Position numbers and translations under genes: made by a program. A stretch of DNA of 64,000 nucleotides from an uncultured Solibacteraceae bacterium. Lineage in GTDB: Bacteria > Acidobacteriota > Terriglobia > Bryobacterales > Bryobacteraceae. Below are positions 8,300 to 38,037 of this stretch, one piece after another. The first letter of the stretch is position 1; each line of letters opens with the position of its first letter. The notes below the pieces were generated by a model. The model ran no database searches and had not been told where the DNA came from. It saw only the letters and a program-made list of their open reading frames with translations. Location: the NCBI GenBank assembly GCA_964654065.1, contig CAZZHN010000005.1, positions 3,909 through 67,908 of the forward strand. The letters run 5' to 3'.

Positions 8300-8458
8300 A
8301 AAAACTTTCACAAGCCGCTGGATGAGATTTTCAAAGCCTGGCGTGGCGCGGGCAGTCCTGCCTGCTGTGTCGAGAGTCATCTCGACATTTCTTCGATGCC
8401 TCCGCCTGGCAGAGGCTTTGCTTGAGTTCCCAATCGGGTTCAGCGATGATCAGCTTGG

Positions 8459-9042: not shown

Positions 9043-9059
9043 ACGGAGGCTCGAAATCC

Positions 9060-11387: not shown

Positions 11388-11526
11388 CAGCCTCTATAAT
11401 AGCGGCGAAAGGAACCAGGCCGTCCTGTGGGGCAAACCCCAGGTCTGCGGCCGACGCCTTCGTCGGCCTGGTTCTTGTGTTGGGATTTCAGGCCGCGAAT
11501 GAGCCGGACCAGCGGCCAAAGCGCGG

Positions 11527-24749: not shown

Positions 24750-24922
24750 CTGCTTATGGCGAGGGTGAGGCCTGGGCGCATTCGGAAATATTGTGACGAC
24801 TCTCGACGCGGCAGGGTGGGCGGCCCGCGCCAGGGCAGCTGGGTGCCGATCACGGCCCGCAGGCGGTGCGCCTAGTCCGCAGGGGACCGGACAGGCTAGA
24901 GTGGAAGGGAAGGAGTCTGGCA

Positions 24923-26941
24923 TTGTACAAGACCCTGTTTGTTCTCGCGCTGGCCGCCTGGAGTCTTTCCGGGCAGACCAAGGATCAGCCGGCCAGCGTG
25001 CTCGAATTCAACGTTAAGAATATCGACGCTACGGCGAATGCGTGCACGGATTTCTACCAGTATGCGTGCGGCAGCTGGCTGAAGAACAATCCGATTCCAG
25101 CGGATCAGTCGCGGTGGGGCCGGTTTGGCCAGTTGGAAGAGCACAATCGTGACGTGCTGCACGAGATTCTGGAGGCTTCCACCAAGCCGGACCCGAAGCG
25201 CGACGCCACGACTCGCCTGATCGGCGACTACTACGCGGCCTGCATGGACGAAAAGGCGGTGGAGGCCGCCGGACTGAAGCCGCTCGACGCCGAACTGGGG
25301 CGGATCCGCGGCATCAGGGACAAGGAGCAGCTGGCAGCAGCCATCGCGCATTTGCAGCGCGGCGGCGCCGACGTTATGTTCCAGTTCGGCTCCGGGCAGG
25401 ATTTCAAGGACTCCAACCAGGTGATCGCGCAAATCGACCAGGGCGGCCTGGGGCTGCCGGAGCGCGACTACTATGTGAAGCAGGACGCGGAGAGCGAGAA
25501 GCTGCGCCGTCAATATGTAGAGCACGTGGCGCGCATGTTCGTGCTGGCAGGCGAGCAACCGGCGGTGGCCAAGGCCCACGCGGAGACGGTGATGAAGATT
25601 GAGACCGCGCTCGCCCAGGGCTCGCTGGACATCGTGTCGCGGCGCGATCCGGAGAAGGTTTACCACAAGATGAGCGAGCGGGAAATGGAAGCGCTTACCC
25701 CCGCCTTTGCGTGGAAGGAATATTTGCGCCAGAGCGGGTCGCCGGATTTCGCGGCCATCGACGTGGCGTGGCCCGGGTTCCTGCAAGCGCTGAACGGCGC
25801 GATCCAACACTTCACCCTGGAGGACTGGAAGGTTTACCTGACGTGGCACCTGCTGCATTCCGATGCGCGCCTGCTGCCCGTGGCGTTCGTCAAAGAGAAC
25901 TTCGACTTCTTTGGCAAGACCCTGACGGGCACCACCGAGATGCGGCCGCGCTGGAAGCGGTGCGTGGACTTCACGGACGCCGAGCTGGGTGAAGCGCTGG
26001 GGAAGAAGTTCGTCGAGAAGACCTTCGGCGCCGAGGGGAAGGCGCGGACTCTGAAAATGGTGGACGCCCTGGAAAAGGCGCTCGGGCAGGACCTGGAACA
26101 ATTGCCGTGGATGACGGCGGAAACCAAGAAGCAGGCGCTGGTGAAACTGCATGCCATCACCAACAAGATCGGCTATCCGGAGCGATGGCGCGATTATTCC
26201 AGCGTGGCGATCCGGCGCGACGACCCGGTGGGCAATACGGACCGCACGGAGGCGTTTGAGTTCCAGCGGCAGCTAAACAAGATCGGCAAGCCGGTGGATC
26301 GCCAGGAGTGGACTATGACGCCGCCCACGGTGAACGCGTACTACGACCCTTTGATGAACAACATCAACTTCCCGGCGGGGATCCTGCAGCCGCCGTTCTA
26401 TGACAACGCGATGGACGATGCCGTGAACTTCGGCGGTATCGGCGCCGTGATCGGACACGAGCTGACCCACGGCTTTGACGATCAGGGCCGCCAGTTCGAT
26501 GCCCAGGGCAACCTGCGCGACTGGTGGACGCCGGAAGACGCCAAGGAATTCGAGAAGCGCGCGGCCTGCATCGATCAGGAGTACTCGAAGTTCGAGGTGG
26601 CGCCCGGCGCCAACGTGAATGGCAAGCTGACGCTGGGCGAGAACACAGCGGACAACGGCGGCGTGCGCATTGCGCTCATGGCCCTGTTGAACACGATCGG
26701 CGAAAGCCGCCAGAAGCTGGACGGCTTCACCCCCGAGCAGCGGGTGTTTTTGTCCTTCGGCCAGGTGTGGTGCGAAAGCGAGCGGGAAGAGTCGCTGCGC
26801 CTGCAGGTGAAGACGGATCCGCATGCGCCTGCCAGGGCGAGGGTGAACGGCGTGGTACAGAACATGCCGGAATTTCAGCGGGCGTTTTCCTGCAAGGCCG
26901 GCCAGCCGATGGTAAGCGCCAACGCGTGCAGGGTCTGGTAA
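24923..26941 (+). CDS. M13-family zinc metallopeptidase (PepO / endothelin-converting-enzyme-like), secreted
   Basis: HELTHGFDDQG zincin motif and ENTADNGG. I prefer the TTG at 24923 (GGAAGGAG 7 nt upstream, giving signal peptide MYKTLFVLALAAWSLSGQ). The ORF-track GTG at 24866 is the alternative. Confidence 0.85.
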   Translation: MYKTLFVLALAAWSLSGQTKDQPASVLEFNVKNIDATANACTDFYQYACGSWLKNNPIPADQSRWGRFGQLEEHNRDVLHEILEASTKPDPKRDATTRLIGDYYAACMDEKAVEAAGLKPLDAELGRIRGIRDKEQLAAAIAHLQRGGADVMFQFGSGQDFKDSNQVIAQIDQGGLGLPERDYYVKQDAESEKLRRQYVEHVARMFVLAGEQPAVAKAHAETVMKIETALAQGSLDIVSRRDPEKVYHKMSEREMEALTPAFAWKEYLRQSGSPDFAAIDVAWPGFLQALNGAIQHFTLEDWKVYLTWHLLHSDARLLPVAFVKENFDFFGKTLTGTTEMRPRWKRCVDFTDAELGEALGKKFVEKTFGAEGKARTLKMVDALEKALGQDLEQLPWMTAETKKQALVKLHAITNKIGYPERWRDYSSVAIRRDDPVGNTDRTEAFEFQRQLNKIGKPVDRQEWTMTPPTVNAYYDPLMNNINFPAGILQPPFYDNAMDDAVNFGGIGAVIGHELTHGFDDQGRQFDAQGNLRDWWTPEDAKEFEKRAACIDQEYSKFEVAPGANVNGKLTLGENTADNGGVRIALMALLNTIGESRQKLDGFTPEQRVFLSFGQVWCESEREESLRLQVKTDPHAPARARVNGVVQNMPEFQRAFSCKAGQPMVSANACRVW

Positions 26942-27019
26942 AAGGGGAATCGGAAGAGCCGGGCGCCTGATCGCGCCCCCAGCGAGCAACGCCAGGAGAA
27001 CGTTCCCAACCTCGCCGCG

Positions 27020-27964
27020 CTATCGGGCGCCTTCCAGGGTGGACTGCACCAGGTCGCCCAGCTGTTCCGCGCTGAACTCATTGCCTTCCAGGTTGGCGGC
27101 CAGCCTGCCTTGGCGGTCGATGACCGCCGTGCGCAGCGCATGGGTGAATGTGCCGTCGCTGCTCCAGAAGCTGACGCCAAACTCCCGGCACACGGCTTTC
27201 ACCGCCGGCGGCGGCCCGGTCAGGAAGTGCCATGAGCTGGGGTCCACCTTCCACGTGCTGGCGTACCTGGCTAGAACATCGGGCTGGTCGTTCACAGGAT
27301 CGAAGGTGATGCTGAGCAGCTCCAGGTCTTTTCCCAAACGGCCGGCGAAGCGCTTTTGCAAGCGCGCGAAATTGTTTGAGAGCCGCAGACAGTAATTGGG
27401 GAGCGGGCAGGTGGTGTAAAAAAATGTGAGCGCCACGATCCGGCCCCGGAATTCGGAGAGGGTGACGCGCCGCCCGGTCTGGTCGATCAAGGTAAAGTCG
27501 GGGACGAGCTGGCCTGGTGACAGGTCGTTGGTTCGCGCGATGCCTTGATCCTGCTCCTCGATCAGTTGCAGCCGCCGCGCGCGCAGGGCCTCCTGTTCCA
27601 GGCTTTGGAAGTGATGCAGGCGGATGTCCAGAACATAGGAGTCATCCTTCTCCACAACCAGGGTGAAGTCCACGAAGGCGCCCGGCTGCAAGCCGCTGAG
27701 CGCCTGCGGCTCTCGCACGGAAAACGGCATCACCATGGCCTCCATGTAGCCGGGGATGGCGTTAATGGACGCGACGATGGTTCGATGCGGCTGGTCGACC
27801 TTGAGGATGATGCCGGTTACGGGATAAGACTGGGCGGCGCGCATCCGCGCGGGCGCGACAGCGAGCGTCATGAGCAATAATGCAGCGGCGGGCGCCATGA
27901 GCCGTTCAGGCGCAGCACGCCGCCGGCGAGCTCCACAAGGGCCGGCTTGGGCAGGATGCAGCAT
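27020..27964 (-). CDS. SCO1/SenC-family copper chaperone fused to an N-terminal CusF-like metal-binding domain
   Basis: N-terminal part YPVTGIILKVDQPHRTIVASINAIPGYMEAMVMPFSV (Met-rich beta domain). Thioredoxin-fold part FRGRIVALTFFYTTCPLPNYC...H (Cys pair spaced CPLPNYC). ATG at 27898 is the alternative start. Confidence 0.8.
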   Translation of the reverse strand: MLHPAQAGPCGARRRRAAPERLMAPAAALLLMTLAVAPARMRAAQSYPVTGIILKVDQPHRTIVASINAIPGYMEAMVMPFSVREPQALSGLQPGAFVDFTLVVEKDDSYVLDIRLHHFQSLEQEALRARRLQLIEEQDQGIARTNDLSPGQLVPDFTLIDQTGRRVTLSEFRGRIVALTFFYTTCPLPNYCLRLSNNFARLQKRFAGRLGKDLELLSITFDPVNDQPDVLARYASTWKVDPSSWHFLTGPPPAVKAVCREFGVSFWSSDGTFTHALRTAVIDRQGRLAANLEGNEFSAEQLGDLVQSTLEGAR

Positions 27965-27968
27965 ATAG

Positions 27969-30596
27969 CTAACGGCTGCGGGATTGCGATTCGGCTGCGG
28001 TCGCCGCGGGTTCCCGGTGAAGGCCTCCTAAGCGAACGCGAGGCCGGACCAGCCGCTTGTAATCGCGGGCGAACTGGCGGATTTCGATGGCCTGGTTCTT
28101 CTCCACGTTGCTAAAGCGCTGCGCATTTCCGATGTCGCCCGGCCAGAGGATTTCCAGGCTCACGTTTTGCGCCGACTTTCCTAGTCCGATGTGCTGCTCC
28201 ATCGGCGAGGCGCCGAACGACCCGCCGCTGCCGACCGTCCGGTAGATGGAACGCGTTCCACGGGCGCTGCTCACGGTTACCTTGATGCGCGCGCCGACGC
28301 CGGGGCGATTCGCTTTCACGCCGACGAGTTTGAGGCTGATCCAGTCGTTATCGTGGCCGGGGTTCTCAAACAGGCGAAAAGCGTGGCTGTCTCCCGGCTC
28401 GGCGCCGCCAATCACGGTCAGGATATCTTCATCGCCGCGGTTGTCCATGTCGGCGAATGCAATCGCGTGCCCCTTGTGCAACTCGCCGGTGCCGGAGGAT
28501 GCGGTGATATCGACGAAGGACTTCCCCTCCTTGTTGCGCAGCAAGACGTTCGGAACCATGGCTGCGTATGAGGGACTGCCGGTGCCCAGATAGATGTCCA
28601 GGTAGCCGTCGTTGTCCACATCGCCGAAATTAGCGCCCATCGGCATGAAGACCTTGTTCAACCCGGCTTCCTCAGTGACGTCGCGGAAGGCTCCATTCCC
28701 GAGGTTCTTGTACAGCTTCAACGTGGTGGCGTTATGCGGAAGGCCGAAGTAGGTCTTGAGGGTCTCCTCGATGGACATATAGAAGCTGGTGACAAAGAGG
28801 TCCGGCCAGCCATCGTTGTCATAGTCGAAAAACCAGGTGGCGAAGCCGCGTCCGGAGCCCAGCACGCCGGCTTGCTTTGCGATGTCGGTGAAGGTGCCGT
28901 CGTGATTGTTATGGTAGAGCGAGCCGGCGCCCTGCAGGTTGGAAACGTAAAGGTCCATGTAACCGTCGTTGTCGTAGTCCCCGGCGGCGACTCCCTTGGT
29001 CACGGCGACCCGGTCCACACCCGCGGCGTGAGCGATATTCGTAAAAGTGCCGTCGCCGTTGTTGTGGTAGAGCTGGTTGGGGCCGACCTCGTTGCCAACG
29101 AAAAGATCGAGGAAGCCGTCATTGTCGATATCGACCCATACGGCTGTCTGCGTATCCGCGGTCACTTGGCCGAGGCCGCTCTCGAGAGTGACATCAGTGA
29201 AGGTGCCATTGCAGTTGTTGCGCAGCAGAGACACACGCTGCGGAACAGTCTGCCAGCCGCCGCGCAGAACCAGGAGATCCATGCAACCATCGTTGTTGTA
29301 ATCGGTCTGCATCAGATTGAGGCCGCCCAGTTGAGTGGAAAGGCCGGCGCTCTCGGTGCGGTCTGAGAACGTGCCATCGCCGTTGTTATGAAAGTAGTGC
29401 ATGGGGGCGCAGGTGCCCTGCGACGACGTGACCACGTCGAAACGGCCGTTGCCCTCGAAGTCATCCACCGCAACGCCGCCTGCCATCGAAAAACTGTTCA
29501 AGCCTGCCACAGGAGCCCGGTCGATGAACCGGCCGATATCCTCGGCCGAGGCGAACTGCGCGGGCGGCAGCAGATACGCTTTCGGAACTCCATTCGGGTA
29601 CTTACCCAGCGTGAGGTAGGAGATATTCAGCAGCCACTTCACTTCGAGGTCGTCCGGCTTCCGCTCGAGATACTTCAGAAAATGCTGGGCCGCCTTTTCC
29701 GAGTCCGCCGGCAGGCGGTACGCGGTGCTGACGCGCGGCGGAAACAGGCACCTGTCGCCGGGCTTGCGGTAGGCGTCGTTCTCCATTTCGGACTTGTGAA
29801 GGTAGCCGACACCGAGAAGCTCATCCAGGTAGGACACGGTATCCGCGGAGGACGCCGGAACACTCCGGTAGACAATCTCCCACTGCTCGATCGCCTGGTC
29901 CATGTTTCCGTCATACGCCCACAGTTGCCCCAGCGCCACCCGCATCGACATCGTGTCGTAAGCGGACCGGGTCTGCGCCCCTTCGGAAGCCGGATCGAGG
30001 TACTTTGCGGTGCCCTCGCGGGCCACCTCCAGCGACTTACGGCGGGCGAAGCAGATTTGCTGCAGATTCTGGCTCCAACCGGGCGGCTTCGGAATGTCCC
30101 CGAGAGCGGTTTCGGCCTCGAAGAGGCCGGAAAGGTCGAATGCGTAGCGGACGCCATTCGTGGGACTCAGCGCCTGCTGGATCGCGCGCTCCGCCTCCCG
30201 GGCCGCGGCTAACTCGGACGCCGGGACAACTTTCAGAATGGCAAAGCCGGCCGGCAGGTTGATTACTTGAGAAATGCGGCCCGGTTGAAGACCCCGCAGC
30301 GCATCGCGCAACTCGGCCCGCAAGGTCCCGGGAGCGACCTCACCCATCCAGCCGCCGTCGGCCGCCGTCGCGTCCACCGACTTTTCCTGGGCCAGCACGC
30401 CGAAGTCCGCGCCACGGTTCAGTAGTTCGAGGATCCGCTGCGCCTCGGCCAGGGAATTGACGACGATCAGCCGCAACGGGACGGTCCCGGCCGGCGAATC
30501 CTGTGCAACGGTCGGACGAAACAGCAGTCCCGCGCCCAGAATCACGGCCGCAAACCACGCATGCCTTACACGCCAGACCCTCAGAAAGCGTCGCAT
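27969..30596 (-). CDS. CRTAC1-family protein (FG-GAP/VCBS repeats + ASPIC/UnbV domain) with N-terminal parvulin-like domain
   Basis: Six D-x-D/N-x-D-G repeats (DYNNDGCMDLLV, DIDNDGFLDLFVGN, DYDNDGYMDLYVSN, DYDNDGWPDLFVT, DVDNDGYLDIYLG). UnbV_ASPIC end (RSIYRTVGSGGSFGASPMEQHIGLG). N-terminal PpiC-like segment (GADFGVLAQEKSVD...GGWMGEV...FAILKV). Confidence 0.85.
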   Translation of the reverse strand: MRRFLRVWRVRHAWFAAVILGAGLLFRPTVAQDSPAGTVPLRLIVVNSLAEAQRILELLNRGADFGVLAQEKSVDATAADGGWMGEVAPGTLRAELRDALRGLQPGRISQVINLPAGFAILKVVPASELAAAREAERAIQQALSPTNGVRYAFDLSGLFEAETALGDIPKPPGWSQNLQQICFARRKSLEVAREGTAKYLDPASEGAQTRSAYDTMSMRVALGQLWAYDGNMDQAIEQWEIVYRSVPASSADTVSYLDELLGVGYLHKSEMENDAYRKPGDRCLFPPRVSTAYRLPADSEKAAQHFLKYLERKPDDLEVKWLLNISYLTLGKYPNGVPKAYLLPPAQFASAEDIGRFIDRAPVAGLNSFSMAGGVAVDDFEGNGRFDVVTSSQGTCAPMHYFHNNGDGTFSDRTESAGLSTQLGGLNLMQTDYNNDGCMDLLVLRGGWQTVPQRVSLLRNNCNGTFTDVTLESGLGQVTADTQTAVWVDIDNDGFLDLFVGNEVGPNQLYHNNGDGTFTNIAHAAGVDRVAVTKGVAAGDYDNDGYMDLYVSNLQGAGSLYHNNHDGTFTDIAKQAGVLGSGRGFATWFFDYDNDGWPDLFVTSFYMSIEETLKTYFGLPHNATTLKLYKNLGNGAFRDVTEEAGLNKVFMPMGANFGDVDNDGYLDIYLGTGSPSYAAMVPNVLLRNKEGKSFVDITASSGTGELHKGHAIAFADMDNRGDEDILTVIGGAEPGDSHAFRLFENPGHDNDWISLKLVGVKANRPGVGARIKVTVSSARGTRSIYRTVGSGGSFGASPMEQHIGLGKSAQNVSLEILWPGDIGNAQRFSNVEKNQAIEIRQFARDYKRLVRPRVRLGGLHREPAATAAESQSRSR

Positions 30597-30819
30597 CCAG
30601 TGAGTCCATCATAGCGCCTGGGACGCGGCGGTTCTTTCCCCGGCCTAAGCCGGGAAAGGATTGGGCCGGCCGAGGGCGGGGTTCCAGAGGGTGGGATCGC
30701 CAGGCGCGGAACCCTCCGCATGTTACCGTACATTCGGCGCTGGATCCCTGAAAATACGGCAGCAGCCGCCCAGGCGCAGGGAACCAGTACTCCGCCAGAA
30801 AAATCCTTGTCCGTGCGCC

Positions 30820-30848
30820 TTGACACAACGCCGGAAACAGCTGAGAAT
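30820..30848 (+). promoter_or_regulatory. Candidate sigma70-type promoter of the six-gene operon: TTGACA-17 nt-GAGAAT
   Basis: TTGACA at 30820-30825 and GAGAAT at 30843-30848, then GGAGGG and the GTG start at 30869. Confidence 0.35.
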
Positions 30849-30868
30849 AGCCGTCACGGAGGGAAAGT

Positions 30869-31777
30869 GTGGCCAGGAGGGGGCTGACCCACGAGGATTG
30901 CTACATCGTTGTGCGGGGGTTGCGCCACCACTACGTCGATTATGGCGGCGCAGGGGAAGTCATCATCGCTCTTCCCGGTCTGGTGCAGACCGCCCGCGCT
31001 TTTGACTCGATTGCTCCACTGCTGGTGCCTCACGTCCGCCTGATCGCGCTCGATTTTCGCGGCCGGGGCGAGACCGATTGGGGTCCGCCGGAGAGGTATC
31101 GCTTCGATCAGTATTTGAAGGACGTCCGCGAGTTCATCAATCTTATGGGTTTTGAGAAGGTCGGGCTGATCGGCACCTCGCTGGGCGGCTTTATTGCCCG
31201 CATGTTCGCGACCGCGTACCCGGCCCGGGTGACCCGATTGATCCTCAACGATTGTGCGATCGGTGGCAATATGGCCGGATTACTCCGCGTCGGGGCGCGC
31301 CCGGCGACCGCGCCGAACGAGTTTGCCAGCCTGCAGGAGGCGGTGGAATGGTTTCACGCCACGCGCCCGGGCATGGATCGCATGGACGCTGAAACGCAGG
31401 AAGAGTATGTCTCACATTACTTGAAAGCCACGCCGGGAGGCGGGCTATGTTTCGACTGCGACCCTGCGGTGATCCGGATGGCCGATGGACTGGTGAACCA
31501 GCTCGCCGGGCTCCGGCGGACGGACCTGGAATCGAAGGTGGTGTGGGAACAGGCGAGCCGTTTAACCATGCCGCTGCTGTTGATTCGCGGAGCGCTGAGC
31601 GACGTAATCTCCCCGGTCACGATAGCCCGCATGCAAGAGGTGCTGCCTCACGCCAAATCGGTAGAGATCCCAGGGGTCAGCCATTCACCGACTCTCTACG
31701 AATCGGAAGCCCAGTCCGCCATCCGGGACTTCTTTGGTTTTCGAACCCAGGAACTAGCTGCGGAGGCGGCCATATAA
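30869..31777 (+). CDS. Alpha/beta hydrolase (operon gene 1)
   Basis: GTG start after GGAGGG. Nucleophile elbow GTSLGG and C-terminal GVSHSP (His). 302 aa. Confidence 0.8.
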   Translation: MARRGLTHEDCYIVVRGLRHHYVDYGGAGEVIIALPGLVQTARAFDSIAPLLVPHVRLIALDFRGRGETDWGPPERYRFDQYLKDVREFINLMGFEKVGLIGTSLGGFIARMFATAYPARVTRLILNDCAIGGNMAGLLRVGARPATAPNEFASLQEAVEWFHATRPGMDRMDAETQEEYVSHYLKATPGGGLCFDCDPAVIRMADGLVNQLAGLRRTDLESKVVWEQASRLTMPLLLIRGALSDVISPVTIARMQEVLPHAKSVEIPGVSHSPTLYESEAQSAIRDFFGFRTQELAAEAAI

Positions 31778-31819
31778 GCGGCTCTGCGCACGAAGCGCAC
31801 GAAGTATTGAGGGAATACT

Positions 31820-33124
31820 ATGCTCACTGCAACCGAAGCACAGATGTCAATCGGAGGGGTTTCGTCCGCCAGCCTGGCCAGCGAGTTCGGGACCCCTCTC
31901 TACGTTTACGATGCCGACGAGGTGCGCCGGTCGTTTCGCCGGATTGTGAGTGCCGTGCCGTATGCGCCGGTGACAATTCACTACGCGTGCGTAACGAATG
32001 CGAACCTGGCGCTGATGCGGCTGATCCACGCACTGGGCGGCGGCATCCATGCCAACACGTGGGGCGATGCCGTGATGGCCCTGCATGCCGGCTTCGCGTC
32101 CAAGGACATTGTCTACAGTGGAAGCAATATCAGCGCGGACGACTTTCAGAACATTTTTGCCAACCGGGTTCGCGTCAATGTGAATTCGCTGAGCCAGCTC
32201 CGCCAGTATGCGGCCCATCTGCATGACTTCGAGCGGCGGCACGGCGGCAATCTCAACGTCATGCGGGGAGTTGGCATGCGCATCCACCTGGAAGACAAGA
32301 TGCTCTACAGCCGGATGGGAGTGAAGACCAGCGAGATTGCCGAGGCGCGCGACATCGCGGCACGTGAGGGACTGCGGCTCACGGGCGTGCACTACTATCG
32401 CGGCACCGGCACCATCCACATCCATCATTTTCTGGAGCCGTTCCCGTACCTGATGGAGGTGGGCAAGCAGCTCGGCGAAACGCTGGAGTATGTCGACATC
32501 GGCGGCGGTTTCGGCTATCCCTACATGCCGGGCGGCCCGGACGACTTCAACTGGGAATTCTTCGGCGCCAGCATGAACGGCATGCTGGAGGATCTTTCGA
32601 GCACGATCGGGCGGCGGGTGTCGCTCGTACTCGAGCCGGGCCGGAGCGTGGTGGCTTCGTCCGGGTATGTGCTGTCCCGGGTAGTGGCGGTAGACCGGCG
32701 CGCGGCGGGCGGGCAGGTGGTGGGCGTCGATACCACGGTGAGTCACATCAGCAGCGAGACGTTTCGCGTGTACGGTGGCTACCGGCGCATCGCCCTTGCC
32801 AACCGGGATAGTGACGAACAGCCGGTGCCGACCGACGTGGTCGGATCCACGACATTCTCCGACGACTACATCGGACGAGCCCCGCGCTACGACAAGACCG
32901 ACAGAGGAATCCTGCTTCCCCCGCTTCATGAAGGGGACCTGCTCGCCGTGCTCGACGCTGGCGGCTACGGATTTGCGTTCGCATCCAACTTCCTCAACAA
33001 GCCGAGGCCGGCAGAAGTCCTGATCGACGGCGGACAGGCGCGCCTGGTCCGCAGGCGCGAGACCTACGACGACATGCTCCGGCTCCAGCAGGAAGTGGAG
33101 CTGAGCAAATCGGCGACAGCCTGA
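31820..33124 (+). CDS. Fold-type-III (Orn/DAP/Arg decarboxylase family 2) homolog lacking the PLP Schiff-base lysine (operon gene 2)
   Basis: Clear DapDC-like collinearity: FGTPLYVYD, VDIGGGFGYPY, LEPGRSVVA, DAGGYGF, ARLVRRRETYDD. The Y-A-x-K-x-N site reads HYACVTN (Lys replaced by Val). C-E-S-G-D reads TFSDD. H-x-G-S reads YYRGTG. Confidence 0.85.
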   Translation: MLTATEAQMSIGGVSSASLASEFGTPLYVYDADEVRRSFRRIVSAVPYAPVTIHYACVTNANLALMRLIHALGGGIHANTWGDAVMALHAGFASKDIVYSGSNISADDFQNIFANRVRVNVNSLSQLRQYAAHLHDFERRHGGNLNVMRGVGMRIHLEDKMLYSRMGVKTSEIAEARDIAAREGLRLTGVHYYRGTGTIHIHHFLEPFPYLMEVGKQLGETLEYVDIGGGFGYPYMPGGPDDFNWEFFGASMNGMLEDLSSTIGRRVSLVLEPGRSVVASSGYVLSRVVAVDRRAAGGQVVGVDTTVSHISSETFRVYGGYRRIALANRDSDEQPVPTDVVGSTTFSDDYIGRAPRYDKTDRGILLPPLHEGDLLAVLDAGGYGFAFASNFLNKPRPAEVLIDGGQARLVRRRETYDDMLRLQQEVELSKSATA

Positions 33125-33127
33125 CCA

Positions 33128-34162
33128 ATGTACATCCTGGTCTCGGTGCCCAATGAGGCGTTCCATCGCGTGATGGTGGCGCGCGCCCTGCATCGCAGGC
33201 TCGGCGTGGAATCGTCGGTGTACCGCAACGCTTCTGAACTGCTGCGCCGCGTGGAGCGATCCTACGGCGGGCGCATCGTTCTGCTCGACTGGACCAGGCG
33301 GCAGATTGCAGCCGATGTGAAGGTGGCGGGCGCCTCCGGACTCGCCATCGGAAAGGATGCGATCTACTGTTCGAGCTGGACCGGGAACTGCGTCGAGCGC
33401 CTGCAGAGAGGCGCGCCGCGCCGCGAGATCTCTCACCCCTGGTTCAACCATCTGCACACGGTGGAGTTTACCGAGGCGGGGACGCTGCTGGTGGCTAGCG
33501 CCGGCGCGGACCTGATTCTGGAGATGTCGGTAGAAGGGGAGGTGCTTTGGCATTGGTTCGGGCCGGATCACGGATTCGCGCCGAAGACGCCCGGGCCATC
33601 CTCCTCGTTCGACCCGGATACCGATTACCGCGAGGTGCGCCGCAGCACCTCCGAGCGGGGCATGCACGTGACCTCGGCGCTGGCGGTGGGCGCCGGCAAG
33701 GTGCTGGCCGCCCTGTTTCACCAGGGCCAGCTGATCCTGATCGACCGCAAGACCGGCGCCGCCGAGACCATACTCAGCGGACTGGTGCGGCCGCACGGCA
33801 TCCACCGGCGTCCCGGCGGCTTCATTCTTTCCGACACGCTGGGCCATCGCATCCTGCTTCTCGACGATGCCCTCCGGATGTGCACCGAGATTCCGTTTGG
33901 TTCGCAGTGGCTGCAAGACACGATTCTCACCAGCGCCGGGACTTACTTCACGCTGGAGAATGTCCACATCGATCAGGAGCCGCAGCCCGGGCTGTCCAAC
34001 CACATTGCCGAGATTGATCGGGCCGGCACGCCTCTGGGCGGGATTCAAGTGCCGCCCGACCACCGGCTCTTCGCGGTGCGCGAGATCCCTGACGATGCGG
34101 CGCAGTGGATGATCGCCGAGTGGGGATCGAGCGGCGATCTGGATGGCTGGGCGTGGAACTGA
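33128..34162 (+). CDS. Hypothetical protein, possibly beta-propeller-like (operon gene 3)
   Basis: 344 aa, starting 3 nt after gene 2. Repeated strand-like segments (LLVASAGADLILEMSVEGEVLWHW, GQLILIDRKTG, GGFILSDTLGHRILLLD). No family recognised with confidence. Confidence 0.6.
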   Translation: MYILVSVPNEAFHRVMVARALHRRLGVESSVYRNASELLRRVERSYGGRIVLLDWTRRQIAADVKVAGASGLAIGKDAIYCSSWTGNCVERLQRGAPRREISHPWFNHLHTVEFTEAGTLLVASAGADLILEMSVEGEVLWHWFGPDHGFAPKTPGPSSSFDPDTDYREVRRSTSERGMHVTSALAVGAGKVLAALFHQGQLILIDRKTGAAETILSGLVRPHGIHRRPGGFILSDTLGHRILLLDDALRMCTEIPFGSQWLQDTILTSAGTYFTLENVHIDQEPQPGLSNHIAEIDRAGTPLGGIQVPPDHRLFAVREIPDDAAQWMIAEWGSSGDLDGWAWN

Positions 34163-35211
34163 CGGCGTCGCATTACTTCACCGATCGCCTGGAAGAGGCG
34201 TACGCCCACATCGACCGGCTGGGTGCGCACTTCTGTTTCCGGCTGGCGCACGAGTTCCGGTTGTTGGAGGAGCCGAACGCAAAACCGGCCTGGCTGGCGC
34301 CGGAGGCGGAATATCTTTGGCGCTATGTCCTCGACGTGCTCGCAGAGGAGGGGTGCCTGGTGCGCGAAGGCGGCGGGTGGCGCGCAGCCGCGCCGTGCCC
34401 CGCCGATGAGAGTTCGCGGTTGTACGCCGGGGCCGCGTCGGCCTGCCCCGAAGCGGCGGCGATCTTCGAGCTGATGAAACGCTGCTACGATCATGCTCCT
34501 GCGTTTCTGAGCGGCAGGCAGACGGGCGTGAGTGTCGTTTTTCCGCGCGGCGACCTGTGCTTATGGGAGCGCGTGCACCGGCAGGACGCTGTCATGTCGA
34601 TCTACGCGGACCCGGTTCCGGCCGCCCTGGCGGACGTGTTGCAGCCGGGCGCGCGGGTGCTCGAGGTGGGTGCGGGAGTGGGCGCGGTATTGCGCCGGTG
34701 TCTGCCGATGCTGAAGGAGGGGGAACTTGCCGAATACTGGTTCACCGACCTCGGGCGGCTCTTCGTGCAGCGTGCCGAGCAGGAATACGCAGGGGAAGGG
34801 TTGGCCCGATTCGCGGTGCTCGACCTGGACCAGCCGCTCGCGCCGCAGGGGTTCGCGCCGGGACAGTTCGACGTGGTTCTGGGTGTGAACGTGTTCCATT
34901 CGGCGCGGAACCTGGAATTCAGCTTGCAGGAATTGCGATCGCTGCTGCGGGACGGGGGAACTGTGATTCTGGGAGAGGGTTCGCCGCCGCGGGAAGGGAA
35001 GCGATGGCGGCTCGACTTTGTCTTCGCCTTCCTGCGAGGCTGGTGGGATGTCACGCTCGATTCCGCGTTCCGGCCGCGACCCGGCTTCCTGTTTCCCCGC
35101 GAGTGGATCCGGCTGTTCCAGCACTGCGGCTACCAGCGCGTCGCGGCGTTTCCGGGCGAGCAATGGTTTCCAGGCGCCTGCCGCGGCGGACTGGTGGTAG
35201 CCACAAAATGA
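34153..35211 (+). CDS. Class I SAM-dependent methyltransferase with N-terminal helical domain (operon gene 4)
   Basis: Motif I ARVLEVGAGVGAV, then DVVLGVNVFH and GGTVILGE. GTG 34153 overlaps the gene 3 stop (GTGGAACTGA). ATG 34105 is the alternative start. Confidence 0.75.
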   Translation: MELTASHYFTDRLEEAYAHIDRLGAHFCFRLAHEFRLLEEPNAKPAWLAPEAEYLWRYVLDVLAEEGCLVREGGGWRAAAPCPADESSRLYAGAASACPEAAAIFELMKRCYDHAPAFLSGRQTGVSVVFPRGDLCLWERVHRQDAVMSIYADPVPAALADVLQPGARVLEVGAGVGAVLRRCLPMLKEGELAEYWFTDLGRLFVQRAEQEYAGEGLARFAVLDLDQPLAPQGFAPGQFDVVLGVNVFHSARNLEFSLQELRSLLRDGGTVILGEGSPPREGKRWRLDFVFAFLRGWWDVTLDSAFRPRPGFLFPREWIRLFQHCGYQRVAAFPGEQWFPGACRGGLVVATK

Positions 35212-36860
35212 CCGCTGATCTGCTTCTGGGAACTGACTGGCTGCGGCCGGTTCACCATGCTCCGGGGTATGTGTTTGGTGCGGCGGCGCCGGCGGAGTCG
35301 ACGGTGACGGGAGTGCTGGCCCGGCAGGCGGCGGCGATGCCGGATGCTCCGTTCCTGACCGGCCTGGACGATGCGCCGCGGCGGGTGCTCAGGTATGCCG
35401 AGGCGCATGCGGAAGTCTCGCGCCGCGTGGGTGTGCTTCGCGGATGGGGGTTGCAGCGGGGAGATCGCATCGGCGTCCTCGGGCAGAATTCGCTCGATTT
35501 CGTGCTCGCCGTGCTGGCATGCCTTGAGGCGGGTGCGGTCGCCGTACTTCTGAATCACCGGGATCCGGTGGCGCGCATCGCTAATCGCGCGGCGTTCACC
35601 GGCGTCCGGTTTCTCCTCTATGAAGCCTGTCTGGCGGCGCTCGCCGAAAACTGTACCGGTGTGGAACGGCTGTGCGGGTTCGACGAATTGAAGCGCCTGG
35701 CCGCCAGCGTCAGGGAGACCCGCAGTAGTGCGCCGCCCAAGCCGACGGACGCGGCCCTCATCTTTTTCACCTCGGGGACGACCGGCATGCCGAAGGCGGT
35801 GGTTCAGTCCCATTACGCGCTGGCGCAGAATGCGCTCTCCCTGGCGAGGCACCATCGTATCCTGCGGGGGATGAACCTGCTTTGCGTGTTGCCGCTGCAC
35901 CACGTCAACGGGCTGGAGTTCACGATTCTGGGCGTTCTTTGCGGCGGTGGTCACACGGTGGTCTGCCGGGGGTTCGACGGGCTGAAATTCTGGACCCTGG
36001 TGGAGGAGCACCGGATCGAGATCGCGAGCCTGGTGCCGAACCTGCTGCGGCTGCTGGCCGACCGTCCCGCACTGCGCGGAGGCCGCGGCAAGAGCCTGCG
36101 CTACGCGGTTTCGGCGGCGGCGCCGCTTTCCATCGCCATCGCGGAGAGCGCGTGGTCGCGTCTCGGACTGAGGATTGTGCAAGGCTACGGCCTGTCCGAA
36201 GTGACCAACTTTACCTGTGTCATGCCGCCCGATTTGAGCGTGGAGGAATATGAGCGGTGGATGACGAAGGGCCGGCGGACCTCGATTGGGCCGGCGCTGC
36301 CGGGGCAGGAGGTCCGCATCGATGTTGAAGCGGGCGAGGAAGGCGAGATTCTCATCCGCGGCAACTCGGTGATGAGCGGTTATCTGCACAACGAGCAGGC
36401 GACAGAAGAAGTATTCTCAGGTGGATGGTTCCATTCCGGCGACCTCGGCTACGCGATTGCGGACGGTGCGGGGCGCCAGTTCATCCATGTGTCGGGACGG
36501 GTGCGCGAAATTGCCAAGCGTTCCGGCGCCATGATCAACCTGCTGGAGGTGGATGAGGTGTTGGGCACGATCCCGGGAGTTTCGGATTTCGCGTCGGCAG
36601 CGTTTGCCAACAAGTGGGTGGACGAGGAGATCGGCGCCGTCGTGGTGAAGGAGCCGGACAGCAGCGTGACCGAGGAGAGCGTCCTGGAGTACTGCCGGCA
36701 GCGGCTGCCGTTTACGGAGTCGCCCAAGGCGGTCGTGTTCGTGGAGGACGTGCCGCGTACGGCCACCGGCAAGGTTCGACGGGCCGAGATCGCGAGCCAT
36801 TTTGCGGCGCACGCGGACCGCCTGTTCGTGGATCGCCGGGCCGCGGTGGCTAAGGAGTGA
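35208..36860 (+). CDS. ANL-superfamily adenylate-forming ligase (acyl/aminoacyl-carrier-protein or CoA ligase) (operon gene 5)
   Basis: ATGA overlap with gene 4. Core motifs FFTSGTTGMPKAVVQSH, QGYGLSEVT, GWFHSGDLGY, GRVREIAKRSG, PRTATGKVRR. The 767-aa ORF-track version is an out-of-frame upstream extension. Confidence 0.85.
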   Translation: MTADLLLGTDWLRPVHHAPGYVFGAAAPAESTVTGVLARQAAAMPDAPFLTGLDDAPRRVLRYAEAHAEVSRRVGVLRGWGLQRGDRIGVLGQNSLDFVLAVLACLEAGAVAVLLNHRDPVARIANRAAFTGVRFLLYEACLAALAENCTGVERLCGFDELKRLAASVRETRSSAPPKPTDAALIFFTSGTTGMPKAVVQSHYALAQNALSLARHHRILRGMNLLCVLPLHHVNGLEFTILGVLCGGGHTVVCRGFDGLKFWTLVEEHRIEIASLVPNLLRLLADRPALRGGRGKSLRYAVSAAAPLSIAIAESAWSRLGLRIVQGYGLSEVTNFTCVMPPDLSVEEYERWMTKGRRTSIGPALPGQEVRIDVEAGEEGEILIRGNSVMSGYLHNEQATEEVFSGGWFHSGDLGYAIADGAGRQFIHVSGRVREIAKRSGAMINLLEVDEVLGTIPGVSDFASAAFANKWVDEEIGAVVVKEPDSSVTEESVLEYCRQRLPFTESPKAVVFVEDVPRTATGKVRRAEIASHFAAHADRLFVDRRAAVAKE

Positions 36861-36865
36861 ATGGT

Positions 36866-37132
36866 ATGGTCGAGCTGACGAACCGTGTGCTGGCGTGCGC
36901 CAACAAGGTGGCCGGAAAATCGCTGGCGCTGCCGGATGGCGAAGATCTTGCCCTGGAGGCGTTCCAGTTCGATTCGTTGAGCATTTTCGCCTTCATGGTC
37001 GAGCTCGAAAACGAGTTTGGGGTGAGCATTGACGAGGCTCTTCTGAACGATCAGGAACTGCGCACCGTGCGGTCAACGGCGGCGTTCGTGGCATCGCAGC
37101 AGGGCGGGGGAACGGGAGCGGCCGCCGGTTAG
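36866..37132 (+). CDS. Stand-alone acyl/peptidyl carrier protein (operon gene 6)
   Basis: AAGGAG 8 nt upstream of ATG 36866. Phosphopantetheine-site context FQFDSLSIFAFMVELENEFGV. About 88 aa. Confidence 0.8.
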   Translation: MVELTNRVLACANKVAGKSLALPDGEDLALEAFQFDSLSIFAFMVELENEFGVSIDEALLNDQELRTVRSTAAFVASQQGGGTGAAAG

Positions 37133-37143
37133 GCGCACGAACC

Positions 37144-37167
37144 GGGCCGGGCATGCCCGGCCCCTAC
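37144..37167 (-). repeat. REP-like element (family 1): GTAG + perfect 20-nt GC palindrome
   Basis: Minus strand reads GTAG-GGGCCGGGCATGCCCGGCCC. It lies 12 nt after the carrier-protein stop. An identical 24-nt core recurs at 54258-54281. Confidence 0.6.
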
Positions 37168-37290
37168 GAACGGATCGCGGCGTGCCGAACTTGCCTTGAG
37201 CGGGTCTGGCCATTCTGCTATCCTCAATACGTTGAATTCATGACTAGTTCTTTCCCGGCCGTGTGAGGCCGGGTCACTCCGAGGTTTACC

Positions 37291-38037
37291 ATGTCAGGCC
37301 ATTCCAAGTGGGCCACCATCAAGCATAAGAAGGCGGCTACGGACGCGAAGCGCGGAAAAGCGTTCACGCGCATCATCAAGGAAATCACCATCGCCGCACG
37401 CAGCGGAGGCGACCCGGACGGCAATCCCCGGTTACGCAGCGCTGTGCTGGCGGCCAAAGCCGCGAGTATGCCCTCGGACAACATCAAGAAGGCGATCATG
37501 CGCGGCACCGGCGAGCTGGAGGGCGGGCAGATCGAAGAAGTGATGTTCGAAGGCTACGGGCCGGGCGGCGCTGCGGTGCTGGTGAACGTGGCCACGGACA
37601 ACCGCAACCGGACGGTGAGTGAGCTGCGCCATGTCTTTTCCAAGAACGGCGGCAACATGGGAGAGCAGGGCTGCGTCGCCTGGATGTTCGACCGCAAGAG
37701 CCAGATCTACGTGGATGGCGAAAAGGCGGGGGAAGACCAGCTGATGAACGTCGCGCTGGAAGCGGGCGGCGACGACCTGCGCCAGGACGGCGAGAGCTGG
37801 GAAATCCTGTCGGCTCCAGAGGCCCACGAAGCGGTGCAGAAAGCGCTGGCGGCCGCCGGCATTCCGGTGCTGGAGGCCTCGATCGCCATGGTTCCCAAGA
37901 ACTTGGTGAAGCTGGAAGGCAAGAACGCTTCCGGCATGCTGCGGCTCAACGATGCGCTGGAAGAGCACGACGACGTGCAAAACGTGTACTCCAACTTCGA
38001 TATCGACGAGAAGGAGATGGAGGCCCTCGAGCGCTGA
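37291..38037 (+). CDS. yebC: YebC/PmpR-family DNA-binding transcriptional regulator
   Basis: [37 protein letters not shown]... is diagnostic. Confidence 0.9.

Follow-up and report, generated by a model that had tools for sequence, protein, structure and literature searches.

A clade of diaminopimelate decarboxylase-fold proteins without the Schiff-base lysine, represented in an acyl carrier protein cassette

A six-gene cassette encoding a Lys-less protein

The window, a 64,000-nucleotide stretch of DNA from an uncultured Solibacteraceae bacterium (contig CAZZHN010000005.1), carries a tight cassette of six genes, the second of which encodes a protein with the fold of diaminopimelate decarboxylases (DapDC) and without their Schiff-base Lys. 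The features of the cassette are as follows.

30820..30848, + strand: promoter-like TTGACA-17-GAGAAT, 20 nt before the first gene; fits an operon start
30869..31777, + strand: alpha/beta-hydrolase, 302 aa, first cassette gene (Pfam Abhydrolase_1, 6e-20)
31820..33124, + strand: Lys-less DapDC-fold protein, 434 aa (ORF, Pfam, alignment and AF2 model)
33128..34162, + strand: orphan six-bladed beta-propeller, 344 aa (AF2 pLDDT 90); 3-nt gap to the Lys-less gene, translationally coupled
34153..35211, + strand: stand-alone PKS-type C-methyltransferase (C-MT), 352 aa (Pfam Methyltransf_12/11/23)
35208..36860, + strand: ANL-family acyl-AMP ligase, 550 aa (Pfam AMP-binding, 2e-70)
36866..37132, + strand: acyl carrier protein (ACP), 88 aa, with a DSL motif (Ser codon 36974-36976; Pfam PP-binding, 5e-07)

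The order hydrolase, Lys-less protein, propeller, C-MT, ligase, ACP is kept in 6/6 loci of close relatives (clade A), whose flanks are unrelated, and in all six the hydrolase gene lies directly upstream of the Lys-less gene. The successive junctions in the window are +42, +3, -10, -4 and +5 nt, the C-MT gene overlapping its neighbours by 10 and 4 nt. No other sigma-70-like match lies in 30400-37400, but one match is what shuffled sequence would be expected to give, so the promoter-like site is weak evidence.

The hydrolase (dN/dS 0.085) showed only generic matches in NCBIfam and the PDB. The propeller had no match in Pfam or NCBIfam, and Foldseek returned only generic NHL/YVTN propellers (TM ~0.5); its family is small (93 proteins) and confined to clade-A-type contigs. 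Many His residues are invariant in this family. The best PDB matches of the C-MT were the CurJ C-MT (5thy, 4e-38), DisA, AprA MT2 and the CMeT domains of citrinin and LovB, which places it closest to PKS C-MTs active on ACP-bound substrates. The nearest solved relatives of the ligase are FadD13 and the oxalate-, feruloyl- and malonyl-CoA ligases; its NCBIfam matches, including that to the NRPS A-domain model, were all below cutoff.

The ORF at 31820-33124 starts with ATG, with a Shine-Dalgarno sequence (GAGGGA) 8 nt upstream, and its GC3 (0.80) is similar to that of the neighbouring genes. A sequence-only reading of this DNA had described an intact gene with good codon usage inside a coupled operon, and the junctions and GC3 bear this out. 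The gene is intact and under strong purifying selection (dN/dS 0.062). The retained, repurposed role suggested in that reading likewise agrees with the dN/dS and with retention of the cassette in the six related loci. A pseudogene or decaying gene was rejected in view of the dN/dS of 0.06 and clade-wide conservation.

Employing Pfam, we found above-cutoff matches of the 434-aa protein to PF02784 (1.3e-22, 80.8 bits) and to PF00278 (38.1 bits). LysA gave the best sequence and profile match (Aquifex LysA, 2p3e, 2e-40). The AF2 model (pLDDT 84, pTM 0.86) was matched by Foldseek to E. coli and Aquifex LysA with TM ~0.8, and the predicted two-domain architecture, a TIM-barrel plus a beta-sandwich, is common to LysA (2p3e, 1knw, 2yxx), with which the protein is collinear. 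The collinearity with diaminopimelate decarboxylases had been proposed from short motifs, all of which are present; Pfam, 2p3e and the AF2 model agree with it. Sequence and model thus provide solid support for assigning the protein to the homologs of Orn/DAP/Arg decarboxylase family 2, with a predicted DapDC fold. It scored 244.4 bits against the lysA equivalog TIGR01048, below the cutoff of 297.9, and 116 bits against the exosortase-A-associated PLP decarboxylase model TIGR03099, below the cutoff of 478.

Residues replaced and kept in the cofactor pocket

Residue equivalences were established by pairwise and profile alignments against solved LysA structures, which located the following sites.

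31991..31993, + strand: codon of Val58, which takes the place of the PLP Schiff-base Lys; Val invariant in a 40-sequence family alignment
32048..32056, + strand: His77-Ala78-Asn79, an invariant clade-specific triad in place of Asp-x-Val
32396..32407, + strand: Tyr193-Arg-Gly-Thr196, with Tyr for the PLP-stacking His and Thr for the phosphate-binding Ser
32501..32509, + strand: Gly228-Gly230, the phosphate-binding glycine loop, kept (VDIGGGFG)
32633..32644, + strand: Glu272-Pro-Gly-Arg275, kept; Glu is the pyridine N1 partner, Arg a carboxylate/phosphate contact
32849..32866, + strand: Thr344-Thr345-Phe346-Ser-Asp-Asp349, the active-site loop, standing for x-Cys-Glu-Ser-Gly-Asp of G-P-x-C-E-S-G-D
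32966..32968, + strand: Tyr383, the phosphate-binding Tyr of GxYG, kept

A conserved Lys that forms an internal aldimine is the defining feature of fold-type III PLP decarboxylases. In the 434-aa protein, the attachment motif [FY]-[PA]-x-K reads Y-A-C-V, with V58 opposite the Lys, and His77 occupies the place of the Asp that partners this Lys (D65 in TmDAPDC). The canonical Asp is a partner of both the Schiff-base Lys and the pyridine N1 (PMC8277567). The ring-stacking segment H-x-H-x-G-S reads H-Y-Y-R-G-T (Tyr193 codon, 32396-32398). In the active-site loop, which in canonical enzymes comes from the partner subunit, T345 aligns to the catalytic Cys and F346 to the Glu. The distal-carboxylate Arg of R-P-x-x-Y is also lost, its position aligning to Val or Glu in a low-confidence loop; in the canonical enzyme this Arg and the Glu of C-E serve the L-centre of meso-DAP at the distal site (PMC8277567). 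The loop matching the canonical lid appears ~10 residues shorter in Lys-less proteins. The substitutions previously read as Y-A-C-V, YYRGTG and T-F-S-D-D were therefore confirmed by the alignments, as V58, Y193, T345 and F346. The view that the protein does not act as a canonical DAP, Orn, Lys or Arg decarboxylase is supported as well.

That reading had called for a check for another Lys at the cofactor site. In a 120-sequence family alignment, no alternative Schiff-base Lys is conserved, and Lys reaches at most 56% in any column; none of the seven lysines of the 434-aa protein is conserved in either the 120- or the 40-sequence alignment. For R154, the HMMER alignment and the AF2 strand assignment place the region differently with respect to the canonical strand Arg.

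By contrast, the positions assigned to the cofactor phosphate (GGG loop, T196, Y383), to its pyridine N1 (E272) and to a carboxylate (R275) have been kept. VDIGGGFG, LEPGRS and GGYGF are present in the protein and invariant in the family, and the Glu of EPGR, equivalent to E272, protonates the pyridine N1 in the canonical enzyme (PMC8277567). Compared to LysA, the protein keeps the GGG phosphate loop, EPGR, the GxYG Tyr and the C-terminal RRRET motif; it lacks the Lys of the Schiff base together with the Asp that pairs with it, the His that stacks on the ring, the Cys-Glu loop and the distal-carboxylate Arg. LysA belongs to the lysine pathway, whereas the 434-aa protein belongs to an ACP cassette. 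Columns are invariant at 8/10 canonical active-site positions, against a background of 55/434 (P = 1.5e-6). Conservation within the protein is thus highest in the pocket.

The Lys-less clade and its genomic company

The substitutions of Lys, His, Cys and Glu are common to all 120 closest homologs. We further searched 1.84 billion cluster representatives and compared the best 137 full-length representatives at 50% identity. The Lys was absent in 40 of these 137, and 39 of the 40 also lacked the His, Cys and Glu. Among the 40 Lys-less representatives, E272, D349 and Y383 are universal (40/40), R275 is kept in 39 and G229, the central loop Gly, in 38; Tyr takes the stacking-His position in 36/40, and the position of H77 is His in 13/40 and otherwise Phe, Gln or Leu. 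The replacement set across the clade is Lys to Val, Met or Phe; His to Tyr; Cys to Thr or Val; and Glu to an aromatic or aliphatic residue. Whether orthologs share the K-to-V change had been posed as a check: Val is invariant in the 40-sequence family alignment, whereas the wider clade has Val, Met or Phe.

In a neighbour-joining tree built with the signature columns left out (76 bootstrap replicates), 38/40 Lys-less representatives shared one bipartition containing no Lys-bearing members, with bootstrap support of 64/76 (84%). The 434-aa protein has the replacement set, the kept E272, R275, Y383 and Gly loop, and a place in this monophyletic group. As judged from alignments and tree, the Lys-less proteins constitute what appears to be an old, monophyletic clade of fold-type III PLP proteins that belongs to the DapDC branch. 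The earlier description of the Lys as lost, in the sense of a private change, is thus replaced by that of a fixed replacement set across the clade.

One subclade gave 511 matches among 185,579 species representatives, distributed over cyanobacteria, Acidobacteria, myxobacteria and others. Identity of the clade with TIGR03099, lysA, DokD, FslC or NspC was rejected, the scores being below cutoff except for one Lys-less protein that marginally passes lysA; against TIGR03099, the other Lys-less subgroups scored 107-167 bits (cutoff 478). Searches with two family profiles found no solved structure of a Lys-less member in the PDB, our literature search found no account of a Lys-less DapDC-fold clade, and no curated family model for it was found. 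Apparently, the clade has not been described or named before.

The distant Lys-less relatives adjoin B12 radical SAM enzymes, spermidine-synthase-like enzymes, methyltransferase fusions or Asn-synthase-like enzymes. In the spermidine-synthase-like clusters, the Lys-less protein is the sole decarboxylase-type gene product, and in one case its gene is fused to the spermidine-synthase-like gene; this position argues that clade members may supply a real catalytic step. When the window neighbours were compared by tblastn with 83 loci of the Asn-synthase-type subclade and with three contigs identical to the window, matches were confined to those three contigs. Since the neighbours are absent from other Lys-less subclades, function may differ between subclades. 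In none of three context types is a catalytically intact, Lys-bearing paralog encoded nearby, so there is no obvious prozyme-type partner, and a prozyme-type heterodimer with an active paralog was rejected on this ground.

A large, old and conserved Lys-less branch with an otherwise intact cofactor pocket would be an exception to the fold-type III rule: either PLP chemistry runs without the Lys in this fold type, or what was a PLP pocket now serves a different ligand or reaction. The Lys-less proteins are now annotated as diaminopimelate decarboxylase, and at least one clears the NCBI lysA equivalog threshold; reconstructions of the lysine pathway and annotations of BGCs that rely on this label may therefore be wrong. 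The clade also marks several unexplored small cassettes, of the ACP/C-MT, multi-B12-rSAM, spermidine-synthase-like and Asn-synthase-like types.

Possible functions and comparison with known systems

Because the PLP phosphate and N1 residues are kept in 38-40/40 Lys-less representatives, a cofactor- or ligand-binding and probably catalytic pocket is favoured over a scaffold or non-PLP chemistry. Of the roles suggested in the sequence-only reading, scaffolding and non-PLP chemistry are thereby disfavoured. We tentatively prefer, as a plausible reading that still falls short of probable, a functional, re-tooled enzyme that binds PLP or PMP non-covalently and acts on an ACP-tethered intermediate. 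The ligase would tether the intermediate to the ACP and the C-MT would also modify it; the Lys-less protein would work on the untethered end of this intermediate, an amino-acid or carboxy group. PLP (or PMP) would still be held, non-covalently and without an internal aldimine; the substrate's own amine might form the aldimine directly; decarboxylation-type chemistry would then proceed in a pocket devoid of the usual proton donors, and release or transfer of the product would fall to the hydrolase. Counting against Lys-less catalysis, mutation of the Lys slows ODC and related enzymes by orders of magnitude. The roles of the canonical Lys in the internal aldimine, product release and C-alpha proton donation (PMC8277567) count against it as well.

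The proposed ACP-tethered role follows the logic of known triads of an adenylating enzyme, an ACP and a DapDC-fold protein. BtrK, FlvO and CtaF have the canonical Lys and work with partners that activate amino acids. In the triads BtrJ/I/K, FlvN/L/O and CtaD/E/F, an adenylating enzyme and an ACP are combined with a PLP-dependent DapDC-fold decarboxylase (PMC11350588). The window shares with these systems an adenylating enzyme, a stand-alone ACP and a DapDC-fold protein in one tight operon, to which it adds the PKS-type C-MT, the hydrolase and the orphan propeller. It differs from them in having V58 in place of the Lys of a PLP-dependent decarboxylase, and the 434-aa protein is not specifically nearer to BtrK than to LysA. 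The adenylating partners in the triads are Glu/Asp-specific and load the side-chain carboxylate. The window ligase resembles fatty-acid and small-dicarboxylate CoA ligases rather than amino-acid-activating enzymes; an amino-acid substrate is therefore not indicated.

A non-catalytic pseudoenzyme, binding the ACP, its phosphopantetheine arm or the intermediate and serving as a scaffold, chaperone or specificity subunit in the manner of antizyme inhibitor or the trypanosomatid prozymes, seems rather unlikely to us. Every residue known for acid-base chemistry in this fold (Lys, Cys, His, Asp, Glu) has been exchanged, in most cases for a non-ionisable one, as such a protein would allow; to our knowledge, most natural Lys-less PLP-fold proteins so far described are non-catalytic; the Lys-less protein always occurs among real enzymes and is fused to them in some relatives; and the phosphate pocket could equally take the phosphate of phosphopantetheine. 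Against this, the replacement residues are themselves invariant in the most conserved part of the protein, where degenerate binders usually drift, and the N1-protonating E272, needless for a pure phosphate or protein binder, is found in 40/40 representatives. The want of an adjoining intact paralog in the three context types and the sole-decarboxylase position in spermidine-synthase-type clusters also speak against a pseudoenzyme. Antizyme inhibitor (AZIN1/2) is alike in being a fold-type III homolog without the parental decarboxylase chemistry, and the earlier reading had drawn on this analogy; in eukaryotes it acts as a regulatory binder, and its cofactor site is degenerate. The analogy fits poorly in view of the 8/10 invariant active-site positions: unlike antizyme inhibitor, the Lys-less proteins have both cofactor-holding and substituted pocket residues invariant over hundreds of bacterial species, and no antizyme system.

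The kept cofactor-holding residues would also suit a PLP/PMP enzyme with a reaction other than decarboxylation, such as PMP chemistry on a carbonyl with H77 or Y193 as base, or epimerisation or elimination on an ACP-bound amino acid; we regard this as unlikely. It would draw on the His that is invariant in the window subclade beside the former Lys site, where canonical enzymes have the Lys-pairing Asp, and on a type of C-MT that handles beta-keto and malonyl thioesters, i.e. carbonyl-activated ACP substrates. Across the whole clade, however, this position is His in only the 13/40 noted above, and the cassette has no evident amino donor or reductase to regenerate PMP. The precedent, the ColD/E1 sugar 3-dehydratases, are PMP-dependent enzymes of type I fold in which the Lys is replaced by a catalytic His and the cofactor is non-covalent. 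They resemble the Lys-less proteins as PLP-fold enzymes without a Schiff-base Lys; they differ in fold and substrates, and the Lys-less clade has Val, Met or Phe, not His, at the Lys site. We consider very improbable a cofactor-independent decarboxylase, or another enzyme, whose substrate would be a carboxy-thioester, e.g. (methyl)malonyl-ACP, with the thioester as electron sink and the old PLP site binding the pantetheine phosphate. Such chemistry runs without the Lys, and both the likeness of the ligase to malonyl- and oxalyl-CoA ligases and that of the C-MT to AprA/CurJ-type enzymes, which methylate malonyl- or beta-ketoacyl-ACP, are in line with it; but it leaves the universal N1-binding Glu and the Tyr stacker at the place of the pyridine ring unexplained, and it does not agree with the ACP-free contexts of other Lys-less subclades.

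Beyond the preferred reading of a re-tooled enzyme, we considered whether the clade might represent a novel class of PLP enzymes for decarboxylative C-methylation or C-alkylation, which we hold to be decidedly unlikely. The quinonoid carbanion arising on decarboxylation of the substrate-PLP aldimine would then stay unprotonated and be captured by the electrophile of a partner SAM-fold enzyme, and the exchange of Lys, Cys, His, Asp and Glu for Val/Met/Phe, Thr/Val, Tyr and hydrophobic or aromatic residues would amount to removal of all proton donors. This would explain the kept electron-sink residues, the inert acid-base replacements and the shorter lid loop, as well as the frequent fusion or adjacency to C-methyltransferases, spermidine-synthase-like transferases and B12 radical-SAM methylases. 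In the Asn-synthase-linked subclade, no such association with SAM-fold enzymes is seen. The decarboxylases of MccD/MccE-type pairs and the carboxyspermidine decarboxylases are canonical, Lys-bearing PLP enzymes. In these systems, a DapDC-fold decarboxylase works with a SAM-fold transferase on an aminocarboxypropyl group (PMC8503589). The Met-type Lys-less relatives, with spermidine-synthase-like and methyltransferase genes around them, show a similar arrangement; no Lys-less subgroup reaches the curated models of either type. Members of the clade occur in cultured Microcoleus, Nostoc, Okeania and Anabaena strains, which make the question of Lys-less chemistry directly testable.

The Lys-less gene and its pocket

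The gene occupies exactly positions 31820-33124 (+), as the sequence-only reading had placed it, and encodes 434 amino acids from an ATG start with a GAGGGA ribosome-binding site ahead. Both Orn/DAP/Arg decarboxylase domains of Pfam were recognized in the protein (PF02784, 1.3e-22; PF00278, 2e-09). Its best solved relatives were diaminopimelate decarboxylases (DapDCs) of Aquifex (2p3e, 2e-40) and E. coli (1knw, 4e-38), and BtrK matched at 1e-32. An AlphaFold2 (AF2) model built with 40 homologs as input (pLDDT 84, pTM 0.86) showed a TM score of ~0.8 to LysA structures. All 50 Foldseek matches listed for this model were decarboxylases of the DapDC fold: LysA, D-Orn/Lys decarboxylase, BtrK, N-citrylornithine decarboxylase and lysine/ornithine decarboxylase. 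The domains, the solved relatives and the model confirmed the DapDC/ODC fold claimed before. To our knowledge, all the kinds of decarboxylases in the list of known activities given below for this fold are Lys-bearing PLP enzymes.

In LysA of Thermotoga, as described in PMC8277567, Lys46 both forms the internal aldimine and serves as the C-alpha proton donor. Asp65 and Glu246 hold N1 protonated, and the ring is stacked by His179. The phosphate ligands are Ser182 and Tyr343; the distal carboxylate is bound by Arg249 and Arg285, and the distal amine by Glu315. Residues 133-152 form the lid. The canonical positions of the Lys-less protein were assigned as follows.

Residues of the Lys-less protein at canonical positions (pairwise and profile alignments, codons checked)
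V58: at the Schiff-base Lys
H77: at the Asp pairing with the Schiff-base Lys
Y193: at the ring-stacking His
T196: at the phosphate-binding Ser
T345, F346: at the Cys-Glu pair

Substitution of the PLP Lys, the stacking His and the Cys-Glu pair, noticed earlier, was reproduced in both kinds of alignment, and two more changes were found: Asp is replaced with His77, and the distal Arg is lost. No other Lys, which would have counted against the earlier reading, was found for the cofactor site: there is no conserved Lys column in the family alignment, and 0 of the 7 lysines of the query are conserved. A tentative match of R154 with the canonical strand Arg, and an apparent shortening of the lid loop by ~10 residues, follow from the AF2 strand assignment, the sequence alignment being inconsistent there.

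Relative to the ortholog in L172, a locus from another metagenome (89% protein identity), dN/dS of the Lys-less gene was 0.062 at a dS of ~1.0, near saturation; the adjacent hydrolase gene was less tightly constrained (0.085). Judged from these rates, the Lys-less gene is under strong selection. In a 40-sequence family alignment, invariant columns made up 8 of 10 canonical active-site positions but just 55 of all 434 (hypergeometric P = 1.5e-6), and five of the eight bear new residues. This makes the pocket the most constrained region of the protein, the opposite of what is expected for a decaying or purely structural pseudoenzyme.

Spread and phylogeny of the Lys-less state

The K-to-V change proved common to orthologs, a point left to be checked before: Val stood at the Lys position in 120 of the 120 best database homologs, accompanied by the H-to-Y and CE-to-T[FYH] changes. 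These homologs split into a tight group including the window's protein (at least 59% identity; signature HYACV[TA]N...HYYRGTGT...TTFSDD) and a second group at 40-46% identity, whose hosts are cyanobacteria (Microcoleus, Nostoc, Okeania, Coleofasciculus and Anabaena), Blastocatellia and other Acidobacteriota, and Myxococcaceae/Archangium. With family-specific peptide patterns, 511 Lys-less genes were found among 185,579 GTDB species representatives; none of the 511 belonged to the tight group, the best identity being 46%.

We further searched 1.84 billion cluster representatives exhaustively with a profile; 137 of the best 150 proteins were full-length and were scored. Lys was absent in 40 of the 137, replaced with Met (24), Val (8), Phe (5), Ser (2) or Arg (1). 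All but one of the 40 also lacked the stacking His, the Cys (now Thr or Val) and the Glu, and 36 had Tyr at the stacking position. E272, D349 and Y383 were retained in 40/40, R275 in 39/40 and the central Gly of the phosphate loop in 38/40. In a neighbour-joining tree (nine signature columns removed), 38 of the 40 lay on one side of a single bipartition with zero Lys-bearing proteins; its bootstrap was 64 of 76 replicates, a few saturated distances giving numerical warnings. These alignments and the tree indicate that the Lys-less state is a clade character, not a lesion, and that the protein, of DapDC fold, belongs to a monophyletic Lys-less clade whose remodelled pocket is conserved.

Of the features that define the DapDC family, the protein has the fold and the phosphate loop but not the Lys, the His or the Cys-Glu pair. 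It scored 244 bits against NCBIfam lysA (cutoff 297.9) and 116 bits against TIGR03099, the exosortase-A-associated decarboxylase (cutoff 478). No Lys-less subgroup reached any NCBIfam cutoff except P0224, a Lys-less representative from outside the window (HFACMANNN...GTHMYLGTN...GNTVASED) with 298.2 bits against the lysA cutoff of 297.9; it would be automatically annotated as a true diaminopimelate decarboxylase and thus mis-named. The JGI label of the window's protein and most relatives is likewise 'diaminopimelate decarboxylase'. The activities listed for the fold comprise DAPDC, ODC, ADC, Lys/Orn decarboxylases, carboxy(nor)spermidine decarboxylases, citryl-amine decarboxylases, MccE and BtrK, all presented as working decarboxylases (PMC8503589). 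A family-profile search found no PDB entry in the Lys-less clade, and no published description of it was found in the literature searched, absence there not being proof.

Gene company and proposed function

Six co-oriented genes are packed tightly together, the Lys-less gene being the second; their junctions measure +42, +3, -10, -4 and +5 nt, in agreement with the coupled operon proposed from the sequence. GC3 of the Lys-less gene (0.80) is similar to that of adjacent genes.

Six-gene cassette in the window
30869-31777, co-oriented with the Lys-less gene: alpha/beta-hydrolase
31820-33124 (+): Lys-less DapDC-fold protein
33128-34162 (+): predicted six-bladed beta-propeller, NHL/YVTN-like, no family match (AF2 model, pLDDT 90)
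34153-35211 (+): methyltransferase; best solved relatives are PKS C-methyltransferases
35208-36860, co-oriented: ANL-family acyl-AMP ligase, nearest to FadD13 and oxalate-, feruloyl- and malonyl-CoA ligases
36866-37132, co-oriented: ACP with DSL motif

One promoter-like site lies ahead of the first gene, a count equal to chance expectation; downstream are yebC, ruvC and one unannotated gene, of housekeeping type. In 6/6 loci examined of clade A, the window's close relatives, the ortholog lay within this six-gene set in unchanged order, with otherwise unrelated flanks. Some of these loci hold extra genes for B12 radical-SAM proteins, sulfotransferases, thioesterase-PP, a FAAL-ACP-KS PKS or radical-SAM proteins.

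The propeller protein (344 aa) had no Pfam or NCBIfam match and only 93 homologs in 5.8 billion clusters, all 'hypothetical'; invariant or nearly invariant His residues include H103, H110, H148, H180, H198, H223, H226, H240 and H280. In the window, its gene and the Lys-less gene are translationally coupled, and an unannotated gene for 329-344 aa follows the Lys-less gene in 6/6 clade-A loci examined. At locus L087, a B12 radical-SAM gene is inserted between the two. The C-methyltransferase matched those of CurJ (4e-38), DisA, AprA (MT2), citrinin (CMeT) and lovastatin (LovB CMeT). It stands alone outside any PKS and has an N-terminal extension of ~100-150 aa; free-standing PKS-type C-methyltransferases acting on a discrete ACP are unusual.

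None of the cassette neighbours recurs in the 40-46% group. Its conserved core (L004-L086; e.g. L004 7680-14321, L005 10001-15934), found in cyanobacteria, Blastocatellia and myxobacteria, is unrelated to the cassette and includes an Asn-synthase-like amidotransferase (82 loci, one or often two copies), a 207-aa membrane protein that contains a hydrophobic segment and weakly matches an anti-sigma factor, and a 434-aa protein (72 loci) in which hydrophobic stretches come after a Cys-rich, zinc-ribbon-like motif at the N-terminus.

Among the distant relatives with Met at the Lys position, one to four B12-binding radical-SAM genes surround the Lys-less gene in 42 of 76 loci. Clusters with up to four such genes also hold two unannotated proteins of ~381 and ~335 aa. 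A second arrangement combines a SPASM radical-SAM gene with B12 radical-SAM genes; a third consists of overlapping genes for the Lys-less protein, a spermidine-synthase-like protein, a methyltransferase, another spermidine-synthase-like protein and an EamA exporter, with no SpeD nearby. Within this third kind, the Lys-less domain is also naturally fused to a spermidine-synthase domain (P0326) or to a CMAS-type methyltransferase (P0244). In L095, the N-terminus of the ORF that follows the exporter resembles a homocysteine S-methyltransferase (MetH-type) domain, by eye only.

Loci of fusions and Met-type clusters
L090 525-2648; L091 2055-4250; L095 and L100 ~7977-12850: Lys-less fusions and spermidine-synthase-like overlapping-gene clusters
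L126, L132, L149, L114, L156; L107-L109, L143, L147, L155: B12 or SPASM radical-SAM clusters

Two kinds of partner recur across the clade: those that adenylate carboxylates (ANL ligase with ACP, or Asn-synthase-like) and those that consume SAM (C-methyltransferase, CMAS-type methyltransferase, aminopropyl-transferase fold, B12 radical SAM).

The pocket most likely still holds PLP or PMP non-covalently, because the N1-protonating Glu, an aromatic residue at the stacking position and a complete phosphate cradle are kept clade-wide. A DapDC-fold decarboxylase working with an ACP and an adenylating enzyme is known to produce GABA- or beta-Ala-ACP (PMC11350588), and the window's cassette contains the same three parts. 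Given this likeness and the retained cofactor-holding residues, we tentatively favour an enzyme whose substrate is an intermediate tethered to the ACP and acted on at its free end. In this proposal, the aldimine would form with the amine of the substrate itself, the same tethered species would also be a target of the C-methyltransferase, and the hydrolase would off-load the product. We stop short of calling the proposal probable because Lys normally has three jobs in this fold, the ligase does not resemble an amino-acid-specific enzyme, and cofactor binding is a prediction.

A non-catalytic binder or scaffold is rather unlikely, since degenerate binders usually drift in the pocket, here the most constrained region; the antizyme-inhibitor precedent invoked earlier fits poorly because this pocket is conserved, not degenerate. 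It is also unlikely that the protein catalyzes a different PLP/PMP reaction with His77 or Tyr193 as the base, and very unlikely that it performs a cofactor-independent reaction on a malonyl-type thioester. Removal of every proton donor could itself be the purpose, a long-lived quinonoid being captured by a SAM-derived electrophile in a decarboxylative C-alkylation. We consider this improbable; if true, it would also account for the company of SAM enzymes and the fusions.

Other features of the window

In L172 (1013-2791), the cassette directly follows thymidine kinase. The corresponding interval of the window (24866-30596) has ~6 kb intercalated, with genes for an M13 peptidase, a SCO1-CusF fusion (-) and an 875-aa PPIase + FG-GAP + ASPIC protein (-); the difference is an indel between close relatives adjoining the cassette. 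The contigs are of metagenomic origin; MacB/FtsX and FG-GAP/ASPIC domain genes are present and may point to a Gram-negative host from soil. Positions 9060-11387 (-) of the window encode a 775-aa protein in which a serine beta-lactamase/PBP-like domain is fused to the N- and C-terminal domains of exo-beta-N-acetylmuramidase NamZ. At 42591-43331 (+) lies a gene for a Y1 transposase (IS200/IS605-type); the called lengths of the transposase and the adjoining methyltransferase differ between the otherwise identical metagenome contigs L001 and L002, which suggests assembly or strain variation.
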